DNA of 63,749 nt, filler included, from Sluysia triapertura (Eukaryota), in the NCBI GenBank assembly GCA_046118255.1. It is 5 parts of 5 records of this genome, joined end to end, with 100 filler letters (N's around TTAATTAATTAA, not from the genome) between each part and the next. Parts side by side here need not be neighbours in the genome. Positions count along the whole stretch, not along the records: positions 23,332 to 39,012 come from JBJNIA010221688.1; positions 39,113 to 52,627 come from JBJNIA010035374.1; positions 52,728 to 63,749 come from JBJNIA010190030.1; 2 more parts are not named here. One strand, given 5' to 3'. Each line of letters begins with the position of its first letter. Position 1 is the stretch's first letter. The position numbers and the translations under genes are program-made. The notes below the pieces were generated by a model, which searched no databases, was not told the origin of the DNA, and was given only the letters and a program-made list of their open reading frames with translations. Positions 33,340-61,219 of this stretch are shown here, piece by piece.

Positions 33340-34479
33340 TTTTAGCTTTTTATTGGCTATCCAATCACGACTTCAAAATGATTATATGTATACTACCAGT
33401 CGTGATTGGATGATATTCAATGATTGAATAATAAAATATATTTTTGATGATTTACCATCATCAATATTGATATATTAATAAAATAGTGAACAGTGTCAAT
33501 ATTGATGATGGCGACAACAAATACGGATTAAATAAAATTTGTAAAAATGGTCTGATGGTTGATTATAATAATAATAATAACAATAATAATATTGCTATTA
33601 TTATTATTATTATTATCAAATGAAAACAAATCGCATAAATCTGTCTTTTGAAATTTACACGAACTTTTCTATCAAATCCTTTAATTCTTACATAATGAAA
33701 TAAAAATGAAAGATAAAAGCTGTTGATAATATGTGAAGGAGCAACGGTAACATGGTAAATTGTCGTTGCTGCTTCATTTCTGAATTTAATTGATTTAGTG
33801 CGTATAAATTTTATTTTATAAAGACAAAGAAATGATTTAAGTTGTAAATGGAATAAAAAATATTAAATTAATTTCTTGTAATTTGTTTAAGTTTTACAAT
33901 TAAAAACAGTATTTATGCATTAGATATAATGATTTGAAAGACTTGATAAAAGGTTGTGGTTTATTAAGTTTAAAAGATAATTAAAAAATAATCTTGGCGT
34001 ATTTACAATGTTGTCGTAAATGTTGGTGATGATTATGTGTGGATGAAATGAGTTTGGCTTCGTGTAATTGATTAGAGATTGTAACGTAATATTTTCTATA
34101 TTTCAGGTACTTGTTAATATCATTAAATGGTGTTAATGATATTTATGGTTTAAGTGTTATATGTTGTGATTGTGTTTTGGTTTGGGAGGATGACTATTAA
34201 GTTAATATGGAGTATTCGGTATTGATTATCAAAGTATAGTGTAAAGTAAATGATTGAGAGTATTCGACGAATTGTTTGAGATGTATATGTTGTTGAATTA
34301 TTATAAATTATTGTTAATTATGCATGTGTTAATGTAATTCGATAGTGTGAAATGTAGTTAATTTAGATATTATGTTTTTTGTTAACTAGCTGTTGTGATT
34401 TGATAATGTTAAGTGTGATTGTGATTTAAAAGTTGTGAGATTTTAGAAAATTTTTGAATTATGAGTGTCGGCCACTACA
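33340..34479 (-). mobile_element. Family A LTR-like repeat, copy B
   Basis: GTCGGCCACTACA end; G/T skew on plus strand; GCATAAATCT motif; ATTGG-CTAT-CCAAT at 33352-33365. Left boundary approximate. Confidence 0.5.
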
Positions 34480-35448
34480 ATTACCTATTTTAATATCTCG
34501 TTTTACAAATTATTAAAATGTTCATCATAATGATTCATAGTTTAAAAGTCTAATTCACCTTATAATTGTTGCTGAATTATATATAGAAAATCCAATATAG
34601 AAATTTTAACCATATTTTGTTTTCACATTACTAGAATACCAACTTCAAGTTGTATTATCGAGTTATTATAAACAATTTCTAATCGATCATATAACAATTA
34701 TTGAAGAAATTTAAATTTAAATTGGATCAATTTTTCAATTTGACGTACATGAATTTAATTTATTGAAATATCGTTAGTTTATTTTAAATAGTCGACGAAG
34801 TTTAAAGAAAGTAAACTTGTTTGTAATTTCTTTTATGTAACTTTTCATTACAGAAATAACATTAATTTTTATTTATTATTATTATTAGAAGTATTTTGTT
34901 TTCACCATTGTAATATCAACATTCTAAAATCAACACATAAAGCATTATCGACACCAATTATCTTTAAATTACATTGTTTTAATATTAATATAAAATCCGC
35001 AGTCATATTAATTTGGATTCTTATATAATAACTTAATATTTTTATTCAGCAAGATCTTTTTTATATTTATATTATTAGGATCGAATATATTAAATTATTA
35101 AACTCGAATTATTAAATTCGAATATATCGAATTATTAAACTAAATTTGCTGTCAAATCAGTAACATAAATATTGTTTGCATAAAGCAGTTAACAGTCCAT
35201 TAACTTACTGTGTACAATTGATCTCCATTATTCCCATTTAACGTTCTCTGCTGACACTTACGAGTTGGCCCTTAATTGAGTAAGTCCAATTTCTGAAGTA
35301 GCTCAAATTTATAATCAATTCATACAAAGTATAACTAAAAGTTGCAACATTTTCAACTATATTTTTTTAATGGTGTGATTGGCCATTCAATTTAAAATTC
35401 TGCAATCTCGCACAATAAGTGCTACACAATGATAAGAACTAAACTAAT

Positions 35449-35513
35449 TTATTATTATTATTATTATCATTATTATTATTATTATTATTATTATTATTAT
35501 TATTATTATTATT
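35449..35513 (+). repeat. (TAT)n microsatellite
   Basis: Read directly. Confidence 0.95.
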
Positions 35514-35654
35514 GTTAAATTGTCCTTAATTGTTATATTTCTCTTCATTCTTTTCTTTATACACATAATCAGTAGGTAAATGAAATACAATTTAGGTGTT
35601 GTGTTAAGGATTAAAGTAAAAATGTAAAACGTTAAAGACTAAGGATGATCTGTA

Positions 35655-35730
35655 TGTTGGGGTAAAGGTCTAAAGTGTCATGTATAAATATTGACTATAA
35701 TAAAATAAAATTGTTAGATTGAGCTGATAG
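35655..35730 (+). mobile_element. Truncated third copy of the tRNA-containing element
   Basis: TGTTGGGGTAAAGGTCTAAAGTG...TTGTTAGATTGAGCTGATAG, then similarity is lost. Confidence 0.7.
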
Positions 35731-57750: not shown

Positions 57751-59130
57751 TTTTAAGGTAACCTCGCGAGAAATCCCTGTTTCGCACATATACCATGAAC
57801 ACTGAAAGTATGGTGCTTTGTCCTCTTCTTAATATCTTTGACATTGGTTGACATATTCATTGGGTAAAAACTTTACAAAAAAATATTTCAATAAATCCTT
57901 TGATGACGTCAGTGTTGGTGGGGCACCATACTTTTACTTTTTAAGAAAACTCAAATTTCTGGGACCCATTTATTTTTTAAGCAATGTTCGAGGTTCTTTC
58001 TGTCCATTCATGCTCCTTTTTGATTGTAGTAGTCAACAGAAAGATTCTTTATTTTTGTTCTGTTTTGTATTTTCTAAATACAAAATCGGGAGTTTATAAT
58101 CGGGAGTTTACTGTAGTTTGAACATTTAAAATAAGTAATACATTTAAATTTATTGCATATTGAATTAATATTAGAATGGATAAATAAATATTATTTAAAA
58201 AGAACTTTTTATCATTATTGCTAATAAGTTTCATTAGCAGATATTGCACGAAATAAAAATAATATATAATCAGTGTAAGAAAATTGTTATATGATATTGA
58301 CAAGTTACATATACTATATACAAATTCGTGACGCTAATAATCCTTAAACAGAAGAATTTTTTCCCAGACAGATATGTGAAAAATAAAATCGAACAAAAGT
58401 TAAAGTGGAAAAATGCATACTGTAACTTACATTTTCAATTGCGCACGATCACGAGAATTTTCTTGTTTCCATGTCACTTAGAGTGCATTCGCTGATGTTA
58501 TAAGTTCCATATTTAGACACAAAAGAATGCCTGGCTACTTGGCACAATTAGAAACAATGTATTAGCATCAATTAAATAAATTTGTAGGTCACACTAAACT
58601 GTGATACGAATGTTGATTAAGTGTTTTGCGTAGACAACGAATTTTCCAGGTCAAAGTATTATTTAAATTTCTTTCAAATTCCAATCAAGAATTAAACAAT
58701 TACATTGACTAAATCGATGACAAAAAGTTTTGCAGAGGTACATCTATAAAATACTAATTTTGTACAATACATTGTAGTCTCTTTTAAATAAAAAAGTATA
58801 AAAAGTCTTATAGTTTTGAAACGAAATTTATTTAACTATTGTAATATAGTAATTGTGGGGTTATTATATACGTGTAATCATTATTTAATGTATTTAATTT
58901 GGCTAAACATTTAAATATTAAATTTAAATTCAATATCTTGACAAATATTACAACAAAATCATGAATAAAACAATTAAAATATTTATTACACAAAATTTGG
59001 TTTAAAATTTTATTATATAAATTATATTCTTTATTGTTATTTGGATCAACCTTATATATTTTCCTAGATAAAATAAAATATATAAAATCATGGTCATAAA
59101 CAAAAATCATAGTAAATAGTTTTTTTACCT

Positions 59131-59815
59131 TTAACTTTGGAATGAATTAGCGAGTTGGAAGTATTGTGAATTTGTTGGTTTTCGATAGATATGGAATGCT
59201 TGATGATTGGATTCTCCGTGTGGTGAATTGATAAGATTAGACACTAAATTTTTAATGTGTTCATAGTGATTATTCAGATTTGGTATATAGAAATTAGGTG
59301 GTTGTAGATCGGACAGACCATGTGCATAATTACAATTGTTGTCAAATTTGACACACTCACCTCTTTCTGTTGTTTCATAATTACAGACATAATTATGACA
59401 TATTGAATATATTTTAAATTTGTTGTTATTGTCTTCGATACATTGAGAAAATTACGATATTTCATTAAAGGTCTAAATGTTGATTCACATACTTTACATT
59501 TCACACCGAGTTGGTCATTAAGGTACGTACATTTTTACAATGCCAGCTGCCGTAAAACGGTGCATTTTCATTACGCATAATTTTACCATACATATAATCA
59601 ATAGGTTTATAACTATTTATACATTTAGAACATGTAAAATAAGGAGACATTGATAGCGAATTAAAAATACAAACTTAATCTTTAGTACTAAAATGGGAAT
59701 GAGCATAATCAGACATTTCTTGTAGATTTAATTTCGGTTTATTGATTGAACAAACTTGACAATTTTGCATAAAGAAAGAATTTTTATATTTACATGTACG
59801 ACATATCCAGTTCAT
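59131..59815 (-). pseudogene. Disrupted zinc-finger gene: two RanBP2-type fingers plus one CCCH finger
   Basis: WICRTCKYKNSFFMQNCQVC; WHCK(K)CTYLNDQLGVKCKVC (1-nt deletion in an A run); CNYETTERGECVKFDNNCNYAHGLSDL in a third frame. Confidence 0.75.
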
Positions 59816-59960
59816 TTTTCGGAATTGAAAACAAATTAAAACATATTTAATATCAAAGATTGCTTTTAATAATATATATTTTAAATTCACTGCATTACTT
59901 ATAGTACACTAATTATTAAGAGATTTTAAATATATTGGACAACACGCATTAAATAAAAAA

Positions 59961-61219
59961 TGTGAGATTTTTGATAATTTAGGCTCAATGATTTTTAATT
60001 TTTATTTGTTGCTTGATTTCAAAGCCACTATTTGCTGCAAGCCACAACAATACCAAATAATAGCAGAAAATCAAGCAAAGCACATCAACAGCATTGTGAT
60101 TACGAAAATGAATTAAATTCTGACGCACAATAATTCAAAACTCCAATCAATAGTGACCGCAAGTGACGAAAGACAATTATTAATCAATCAAAAAAACTGT
60201 CACAACTGACAGCACAGATAACCGAGCAACAAAGATAATGACGAACAACAATGAGTGTTGACGACGATAAAATGAGAGTTAACAATAGCAATGAAACTGA
60301 TGATTGGTGATGTGCACAATAATTAACAAAAATAATAATTAATAGTGATTACAATGACATAAAAATTATAAAATTAGTTGATAATGATAATGACTAGTAA
60401 TAATAATGATAATGGATTGTAGAAATGTCTTTAACCCTGAAAGGGTTAATAATAATAATAATAAAATAAAAGTAATAAAAGTGAATAAAATGCATAAACT
60501 TTCTTTACATACAAGACTTTGCTTTCTCAAGAAATTTCTTCTAAAATATAATCACATAAAATTACACCGAACAATAAAAGTAAATAATAATAGTAAAATA
60601 AATAAAACCGACAATAACACTATGAAAAATAAAGACTTAGAAACACATAAAATCTCTCTAATTTCAAAGAAACTTCTCTAAAAATTTTCTCATTATTTTC
60701 TTGGAATATAAAACGAAGTATATAAAATTTTTTCTTATAATTTTTATTTCTTAAACTAGATGTTCTTATTAAAATGAAGAATAAAAAGTCTGTTGAAGGA
60801 AATAAAGAGCATTGTTCTGAACGAAATATTTGCATTAATTCTTGCAGAATTCTTCTCAACCTATTTCTTTATGTGGTTTCGACAAATGTTTCGTATAATT
60901 TATAGTTTTTCAAAAGCCTTAAATACTTTAGAAAACTTTTAAATTATCAATAACGTTGAAATAATGAAGCTTTAGGTTGTTGAAGGAAGAATGTTATCAT
61001 AAGGAATGAAATATATTTAAAGAGATTATTAAAATTAGTGATATTTACAGAAATTGCATTTGGAATATTATTATGTTTGACATAAGATTAAAATGTAAGT
61101 TTGATGATTTTGGATGTTATGAGTGATTTTTGAAGAACAGAAAAGGTGAAATATTCGTGAAAGTGATTTTTTATTATAATGAATTAATTTAAATTTTGAG
61201 TAAACGGTTGGCCACCACA
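59961..61219 (-). mobile_element. Family A LTR-like repeat, copy E
   Basis: GGTTGGCCACCACA end at 61219; TGTGAGAT at 59961; GCATAAACTTT motif; block shared with copy A. Confidence 0.6.

Follow-up and report, generated by a model that had tools for sequence, protein, structure and literature searches.

The window, a 63,749-nucleotide stretch of DNA from the animal Sluysia triapertura, whose genome is AT-rich, contains six copies of a repeat designated family A, several of them accompanied by protein-coding frames (Table 1). All six share the end TGTRGTGGCC and match TGTRGTGGCCAACC at 12 to 14 of 14 positions; Markov shuffles yielded 0 such sites at two or fewer mismatches and 0.6 at three or fewer. 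These termini fit the TGTNR pattern, which characterizes the ends of Gypsy and Ginger elements (PMC2836005). Among five further, degenerate starts proposed in the earlier note, the one at 52269 proved a good member, whereas those at 3943, 18996, 22071 and 45819 match at only 7 to 10 of 14 positions, are missed by a profile built from the six copies, and are not demonstrably family A. Beyond the terminus the copies are very divergent, as had been noted: DNA-level alignment is found only between C and D (z of about 30 to 39; 79% identity over 178 bp of the arm) and between the copy at 978 and E (z of about 9). A metagenome scan with the terminus pattern returned two loci of 45-53% GC that match the 21-24 bp motif alone and were judged chance, and Rfam gave nothing beyond two tRNA-like SINE heads.

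Table 1. Features of the family A copies and of the frames beside them (window positions).
Feature	Position	Strand	Details
Family A termini	34479, 42279, 46502, 61219, 52269, 978	-, -, +, -, +, -	match to TGTRGTGGCCAACC
Copy at 978	1..978	-	cut by window edge; dyad 234-247; aligns with copy E
Copy B arm	33300..34479	-	terminus 34479; TTTATGC at 33633; dyad 33352-33365
Copy B gene	32538..33291	-	two overlapping frames, 123 and 157 aa, frameshift between; no family
Copy C arm	41060..42279	-	terminus 42279; TTTATGC at 41588; dyad 41286-41299
ORF C	39711..41039	-	442 aa, intact; no family or homolog detected
Copy C candidate far end	39584..39591	-	CCACTACA; 2,696 bp from start; inverted-end match 7/8
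Copy D candidate complete unit	46502..49027	+	2,526 bp; TGTGGTGA...CCATCACA; ATGAT at both flanks
Copy D conserved arm	46502..47100	+	terminus, C/A-rich stretch, purine tract, TTTATGC at 47085
Copy D ATTGG-N4-CCAAT dyad	47356..47369	.	
Copy D gene, three pieces	47571..48734	+	
Copy D gene, piece 1	from 47571	+	55 aa, then frameshift near 47725
Copy D gene, piece 2	47726-48376	+	open frame
Copy D putative GT-AG intron	48371-48419	+	49 bp
Copy D gene, last piece	48420-48734	+	degenerate CCCH finger
Copy F	52269..52627	+	terminus and skewed arm; cut by scaffold gap
Copy E arm	59830..61219	-	terminus 61219; TTTATGC at 60492; half dyad only (ATTGG near 60147)
Copy E gene, decayed	59131..59815	-	one in-frame stop and frameshifts; Cys-pair fingers, Unkempt-like CCCH finger

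The arm next to the terminus has a pronounced composition. The strand skew described earlier is borne out: over the 200 bp adjoining the terminus of each full copy, C exceeds G with a skew of 0.51-0.64; read towards the terminus, the last 550 bp of B, C and D hold G at 0.19-0.22 against C at 0.05-0.06, and the C/A-rich stretch of D is G/T-rich on the other strand. This G/T bias is strong in B, C and D and weak in the copies at 978 and E. An inverted CCAAT pair, ATTGG-N4-CCAAT, has four exact sites in the window versus 0.03 expected, one each in the copy at 978, B, C and D; in the last three it lies 271-295 bp from TTTATGC and 115-260 bp upstream of plausible ATGs. The dyad had gone unremarked in the first inspection of the sequence. 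The GCATAAA motif that inspection did pick out runs on the opposite strand to the ORF in each of the copies B to E, and is weak when taken alone because it occurs 20 times in the window.

In each copy, read towards the TGT terminus, the CCAAT pair comes first; AAT repeats follow, and then GCATAAA at some 270-295 bp. Beyond it lie a pyrimidine tract and AATAAA motifs, before a stretch rich in G/T leads to the end ...GGCCACCACA. The succession of TATA-like site, AATAAA, GT-rich stretch and CA end is found in B, C, D and E, with AATAAA uninformative by itself since it is common in 74% AT DNA. LTRs are known to have short inverted ends, AATAAA and a stretch rich in GT, and their R-U5 is better conserved than U3 (PMC3601003).

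In each of the four copies whose downstream side is visible, a stop-free frame of at least 100 aa begins on the same strand 1.2-1.8 kb from the end, a range picked after the data were seen and satisfied by 17% of random positions; none of the four has such a frame on the opposite strand. The co-orientation first reported thus holds. For B, C and D the longest sense frame is longer than in any of 200 shuffles, and for E it is longer than in 197 of 200; the cargo frames show GC1>GC2>GC3 in six of seven pieces, as in the exon of the host gene ANKLE2. The genes of B, D and E are broken and ORF C is intact. None of the 108 frames searched matches gag, reverse transcriptase or integrase, in agreement with the initial observation that gag-pol does not follow the copies. 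Decayed, apparently intronless fragments of coronin and lysyl-tRNA synthetase follow the starts at 22071 and 52269, the synthetase fragment being separated from its start by a scaffold gap.

Homolog searches detected no parent gene for any of the products of B to E. ORF C, given previously as 377 aa, measures 442 aa from its ATG at 41039; it has no homolog among 5,997 candidates, no atlas match, no match in viral contigs, and no match at E 0.001 in a PDB fold search. ORF D likewise has no match in viral contigs; its single weak match (E 4e-4), to a 3,878-aa repetitive protein, was judged chance, and its atlas matches, at most 0.78 and partly lipocalin-like, are a lead only. Single-sequence folds are of low confidence (mean pLDDT 42 and 44). 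The proposal that D encodes a secreted protein starting at 47801 is doubtful, the frame being open already at 47726, upstream of that ATG, and another frame contributing a 55-aa piece from 47571. Nor are the downstream genes all unrelated, as had been thought: a piece of D and a piece of E align with a score of 88, reached in 0 of 5,000 shuffles, so that two of the four cargoes share a homologous Unkempt-like CCCH finger module. The E piece matches PF25427 (E 1.9e-9, 37.7 bits, cut-off 31.1), and the E gene matches Unkempt 5elh at E 0.002; the CCCH piece of E has no homolog among 29 candidates. The D piece, with no Pfam match, connects to the module through E alone. The Cys-pair fingers of E, without Pfam match, have a spacing that we take to be RanBP2-like.

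A candidate far end was found for copy D. At 49027 the unit closes as TG...CA, with an inverted-end match of 6/8 and a 5-bp ATGAT duplication, a combination with a chance of 0.023 per copy (3,000 shuffles) and of about 9% overall, as one of four full copies has a credible one. No purine tract precedes this end, and beyond it the summed contig depth, about 20x baseline before, drops to 12x and 6x. Of the four full copies only D has such a candidate end with a target duplication: the candidate of C lacks a target duplication of at least 4 bp, B and E have no credible far end, and a 4-bp duplication candidate of B at 31881 was rejected as falling within another repeat. The abundant TGTTGGGATT repeat or its neighbour was set aside as the family's far end on inconsistent orientation between B and D and the lack of significant DNA similarity.

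The ORFs of C and D look multicopy, a point that the earlier note had suggested checking: both occur as several diverged variants in the contigs of one run. Contigs with variant letters number 4 to 26 per listed site for ORF C (24 to 26 at 40045 and 40052) and 19 at 47990 for ORF D. Summed contig depth, which is not copy number and comes from one run, its type unrecorded, that may be the assembly's own sample, with gene coverage for C and D only, is 27-62x baseline for ORF C, 20-24x for ORF D, 175-323x for the arms, about 16,000x for the very abundant subfamily of copy F, and 1.1x for a host exon. The ORF signal is modest, given depths of up to 6-14x in bins that lie clear of recognised repeats and of 36-78x in some bins without an ORF. 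Because several diverged variants cover ORFs C and D, these genes likely travel with the repeat, and we consider it likely that the cargo frames belong to a mobile element, and not to host genes with a borrowed promoter. Of the first interpretation, an LTR-like module with varied, decaying and sometimes intron-bearing genes is upheld by the variants of C and D and the far end of D; targeting of host promoters is disfavoured because the ORFs look multicopy and the neighbouring host exon does not.

The reading to which we give an even chance is that the repeat forms one arm of LTRs some 2.5 kb long, left by several diverged retrotransposon families, and that the ORFs are antisense accessory genes inside the element. 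The shared arm would be R-U5, which in copy D would be read on the minus strand, and the variable part U3 or the region from pol to the 3' LTR, holding a family-specific gene; C and D have a common arm and different genes. The order of motifs towards the TGT terminus would then be that described for U3-R-U5. As this order suggests that the LTR reads towards its TGT end, the genes would be antisense passengers, not driven by an upstream LTR. The central CCAAT dyad may act as a two-way promoter, serving the element's RNA in one direction and, in the other, the gene some 0.1-0.3 kb away, and the antisense orientation would let D retain its intron through reverse transcription. Recombination between LTRs would yield solo LTRs that keep their gene, D being an example, and that later decay. 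More speculatively, the CCCH fingers of D and E may bind RNA and regulate either the transcript of the element itself or its silencing. Within the window no copy is paired as direct LTRs around gag-pol, and solo LTRs would also give this absence. TGG follows the terminus in one of six copies (F only), without a tRNA match; PBS and PPT are not expected beside solo LTRs. An R-U5 of about 0.6-0.85 kb, as proposed here, is long, and it is unusual for a CCAAT box to lie 280 bp away from a TATA-like site.

The most probable alternative, though unlikely, is a cut-and-paste one. The copies would be non-autonomous DNA elements ending in TGT...ACA, 'Pack' units of the Ginger/Tdd type that combine a promoter arm with a gene, captured or accessory, and depend on a transposase encoded elsewhere. 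Ginger1 and Ginger2/Tdd resemble family A in TGTNR termini, duplications of 4-5 bp, introns and a size of 2.6-7 kb, and TDD-4/5 make 5-bp duplications (PMC2836005), as in the 2.5-kb unit of D; an intron is easily retained by such elements, and PBS, PPT and gag-pol were unseen here. However, Ginger1 and Ginger2 carry terminal inverted repeats of 40-270 bp and encode an integrase-like transposase (PMC2836005). No such repeats were found, the two ends of D and of C matching over only 6-7 of 8 bp with low local alignment scores. Moreover, an element with inverted repeats would not be expected to have so asymmetric and skewed an arm, in which promoter-like and polyadenylation-like motifs stand in order. 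No integrase-like transposase gave a Pfam match in the enclosed ORFs; non-autonomous copies would be without one. Helitron and Penelope readings were set aside in view of the TGT...ACA ends.

Slightly less probable is an LTR retroelement read in the direction first assumed, with TGT as the 5' end, the dyad as main promoter and the gene as sense cargo of a non-autonomous element, comparable to LTR-mediated retroposition. The distance from dyad to ATG in B, C and D would suit it, as would the coronin and synthetase fragments; in LTR-mediated retrocopies host-gene fragments adjoin the LTR (PMC5131818), which may apply to these two. Yet the sense intron of D should vanish on retrotransposition, no gene in the window has a second copy of the arm behind it, and B to E, D apparently intron-bearing, are without a detectable parent; further, the start at 22071 is not an established member, and the synthetase fragment lies beyond a scaffold gap. 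Improbable is the view that the ORFs are ordinary expanded gene families or segmental duplicates with look-alike promoters: most copies align no further than short motifs and three of four lack an established far end, but a sharp 14-bp terminus recurs in six copies versus about zero expected, one subfamily is extremely abundant, and C and D join a common arm to unrelated genes. We give least credence to a repeat inserted upstream of, or kept before, independent host orphan genes as their promoter, which would explain four of four co-oriented frames and a CCAAT dyad at promoter distance but not the many diverged contigs on ORFs C and D versus 1.1x for the host exon, the broken genes of B, D and E, or the host genes ANKLE2 and astacin without an A-type terminus or dyad upstream.

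Long LTRs carrying antisense genes have parallels. Maize Grande (gene23), Silene Retand and rice RIRE2, all Ty3/Gypsy elements, bear orphan antisense ORFs near the 3' LTR without a host parent gene, with their own promoter as known in Grande and Retand (PMC7264820, PMC11963269), and their ORFs are multicopy, as the variant contigs indicate for C and D. There, however, the hosts are plants and the ORF lies between pol and the 3' LTR, whereas here the host is an animal, gag-pol is unseen, and copy D suggests a gene inside a TG...CA unit with its own duplication. Among animal LTR elements, those of bdelloid rotifers, with a family-specific ORF3 (PMC5408684), and planarian Burro elements (PMC6431247) have accessory genes that are swappable and differ by family, and the giant elements have very long LTRs. 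Unlike the genes proposed here, ORF3s are described as expressed from spliced messages beside gag and pol; the reported domains (env, GDSL, DEDDy, BIR, MATH) do not cover those seen here. No sequence link of family A to either was found. MMTV sag and HIV nef are retroviral genes that lie in LTRs or are driven from them. They resemble the present case in coding sequence that overlaps U3 or in antisense LTR transcription, but no retroviral gene or similarity was found here and the gene varies by family. Antisense genes from 3' LTR promoters are known as well (PMC7264820).

In titles and abstract openings of the open literature, which excludes most subscription journals and Repbase, searches for genes within LTRs or for CCCH accessory ORFs gave no description of this arrangement. 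Antisense accessory genes are known chiefly from plant retrotransposons and from retroviruses. Should the arm be no more than the neighbour of a standard accessory region between pol and the 3' LTR, family A would be a routine new family. A tentative, more specific proposal, which we hold below an even chance, is that a conserved R-U5, a palindromic two-way CCAAT promoter and an exchangeable, intron-bearing antisense gene, Unkempt-like RNA-binding fingers among them, form LTR gene cassettes of about 2.5 kb in a retrotransposon lineage of an animal, each solo LTR seeding a complete, self-promoted orphan gene and the elements thus acting as a mobile supply of new genes. In practical terms, annotation would mistake such ORFs for host orphan genes. 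Should LTRs indeed carry whole genes, the formation of solo LTRs would disperse promoter and gene together as an intact unit rather than delete them, a direct route, if true, to lineage-specific orphan genes in an animal.

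Family A, a repeat with a TGT-type terminus, does sit beside genes on the same strand, and the pattern is best explained by genes that lie within mobile units. The earlier note had proposed either LTR-like modules that capture or drive such genes or elements that target promoters; genes inside mobile units remain the better reading, and promoters set before host genes explain the pattern less well. Six termini match TGTRGTGGCCAACC at 12–14 of 14 positions (table), and shuffled sequence holds no such site at two or fewer mismatches. The proposed shared terminus was not recovered at four other named starts, which match at 7–10 of 14 positions and are missed by the six-copy profile; C-over-G skew is common to these as well. 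DNA alignment beyond the terminus is clear only for C–D (z 30–39) and 978–E (z ~9), and family A is better defined by conserved motifs with diverged spacers than by alignment.

Inward from the terminus, the conserved arm of each copy runs through a C/A-rich stretch, a purine tract, TTTATGC (584–841 bp from the terminus), TTA repeats and CCAAT motifs. For the exact dyad ATTGG-N4-CCAAT, 0.03 sites would be expected in the window; four were found, one per copy in 978, B, C and D, and copy E shows only half of it. In B, C and D the dyad stands 271–295 bp from TTTATGC and 115–260 bp from the first plausible ATG. Two skewed starts, 3943(+) and 22071(+), are weakly alike (z 3–4) and may form a separate family without the dyad.

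The reported co-orientation was borne out: in each of the four copies whose downstream DNA lies in the window, a frame of 100 aa or longer begins 1.2–1.8 kb inside on the strand of the copy, and the opposite strand has none. Random positions pass this same-strand test in 17% of cases, the distance range having been set after the data were inspected. ORF C is intact (442 aa), and searches for a family, a homolog and a fold match to it found none. Gene B consists of two frames with a frameshift between them. In gene D, a frameshift separates a 55-aa upstream piece from a 216-aa frame, and a putative GT-AG intron of 49 bp, itself in frame, comes before the last piece. The decayed gene E has fingers that we take from their Cys spacing to be RanBP2-like (no Pfam match), and its final part is a CCCH finger of the Unkempt-like type (PF25427, E 1.9e-9). 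The last piece of D is 29% identical to this CCCH piece over 69 aa (0 of 5,000 shuffles as good), the sole clearly significant pair among 29 cross-copy comparisons. GC drops from first to third codon position in six of seven cargo pieces, a trend that the host exon shares.

Contigs of one run, possibly from the assembly's own sample, were placed on 39113–52628 at 80% identity, a span that does not reach B or E. Summed depth, which is not copy number, is expressed relative to 16.6, the median for eight listed pieces. It was 1.1x in the host exon bin, 27–62x over ORF C, 20–24x over ORF D, 175–323x for the arms of C and D, and ~16,000x for copy F; bins outside recognised repeats reached 6–14x, and some non-ORF bins 36–78x. 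Listed variant sites (40 of ~2,840) were carried by 4–26 contigs each in ORF C and by 19 in ORF D. These figures lend moderate support to C and D being multicopy and to a wider sharing of the arm than of either gene. The outer flank of copy F could be an internal leader following a 5' LTR.

The window (GC ~26%, four scaffold gaps) contains two host genes, ANKLE2, with introns of ~45–50 bp, and an astacin gene. The best ANKLE2 matches, from amphioxus and fishes, are only 31–39% identical; the host is therefore a fast-evolving animal, and the long proteins searched include none from a close relative. The decayed fragments of coronin and lysyl-tRNA synthetase, whose link to family A is at most putative, may be LTR-mediated retrocopies (PMC5131818).

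Coordinates of family A termini and other features (depth as summed depth relative to baseline)
Feature	Position (strand)	Remarks
Copy 978 terminus	978 (-)	
Copy B terminus	34479 (-)	
Copy C terminus	42279 (-)	candidate far end 39584
Copy D terminus	46502 (+)	candidate unit 46502-49027
Copy F terminus	52269 (+)	
Copy E terminus	61219 (-)	
Outer flank of F	51290-52268	starts TGGTCTAG; depth 36-78x; no Pfam match
Coronin fragment	22600-23130 (+)	decayed, apparently intronless; PDB coronins E 9e-9; ~0.5 kb behind skewed start 22071; ends in short tandem repeat and gap
Lysyl-tRNA synthetase fragment	52729-53060 (+)	decayed; E 6e-27; directly across scaffold gap from F
Coding-like region	35900-38800 (+)	decayed, GC-richer (~40%), acidic tract; no Pfam match for its frames
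Second repeat family	23889 (-), 39553 (-), 50076 (+), 38866 (+), 63673 (+)	begins TGTTGGGATT; some copies with GTTGGG-ATTG-CCCAAC hairpin; depth with adjoining repeat 17,000-35,000x
Adjoining repeat	31688-32044, 50604-50977	
hAT remnant	14291-15899 (+)	ends TAGGGCTG/CAGTCCTA
Mariner remnant	~42950-43560	Mos1 HTH; depth ~2,000-2,750x
tRNA-derived SINE-like repeat	2147-2314, 24658-24821, 35655-35730	conserved upstream part
Frames	57000-58050 (-)	presumably Tigger/pogo transposase-like; no Pfam support
Frames	1000-1700 (-)	presumably piggyBac transposase-like; no Pfam support
Frame	44626-45009 (-)	presumably MAGI-like exon; no Pfam support

Copy D is preceded by ATGAT, and the same five letters come after CCATCACA, 2,526 bp further along, as a candidate duplication. 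The two ends of this unit match as inverted sequence at 6 of 8 positions (0.023 in shuffles), and its far end lies about where depth falls. The candidate far end of C, CCACTACA at 2,696 bp, comes without a duplication. No credible far end was found for B or E, so the chance of one such match among four copies is ~9%. TGG directly follows the terminus only at F, and a search of 108 frames from the window found no gag, RT or integrase.

Ginger elements share TGTNR ends with family A but carry inverted repeats of 40–270 bp (PMC2836005); long inverted repeats were not found at family A units. Family A behaves like LTR elements bearing accessory genes but is only a candidate member, since neither paired LTRs nor gag-pol turned up. 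In Grande, RIRE2 and Retand, orphan ORFs that are antisense and have a promoter of their own lie between pol and the 3' LTR (PMC7264820; PMC11963269), rotifer elements carry family-specific ORF3s (PMC5408684), the giant planarian Burro elements have extra domains (PMC6431247), and rice Retrosat2 combines 3.2-kb LTRs with an orphan ORF0 (PMC3485330). A term search of PMC6338049 found no mention of CCCH.

In the direction of the terminus the dyad comes first, followed by GCATAAA, a pyrimidine tract, AATAAA, a G/T-rich stretch and finally ...CCACCACA. PMC3601003 names AATAAA, a TATA-like and a GT-rich stretch, and short inverted ends among the conserved features of LTRs and describes R-U5 as more conserved than U3, a set that fits a shared arm with swapped genes. 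The arm would then be R-U5, the gene would occupy U3, or the 3' region next to it, in antisense, and the dyad would drive transcription both ways; an antisense intron would outlast reverse transcription. What was observed comprises the motifs and their spacing, the frames, the D–E homology, the variant contigs and one candidate duplication, while LTR identity, reading direction, promoter activity, splicing and function are inferred. That the gene cassette lies within the LTR itself, as one candidate end suggests, is rather doubtful; if true, it would be a notable variant.
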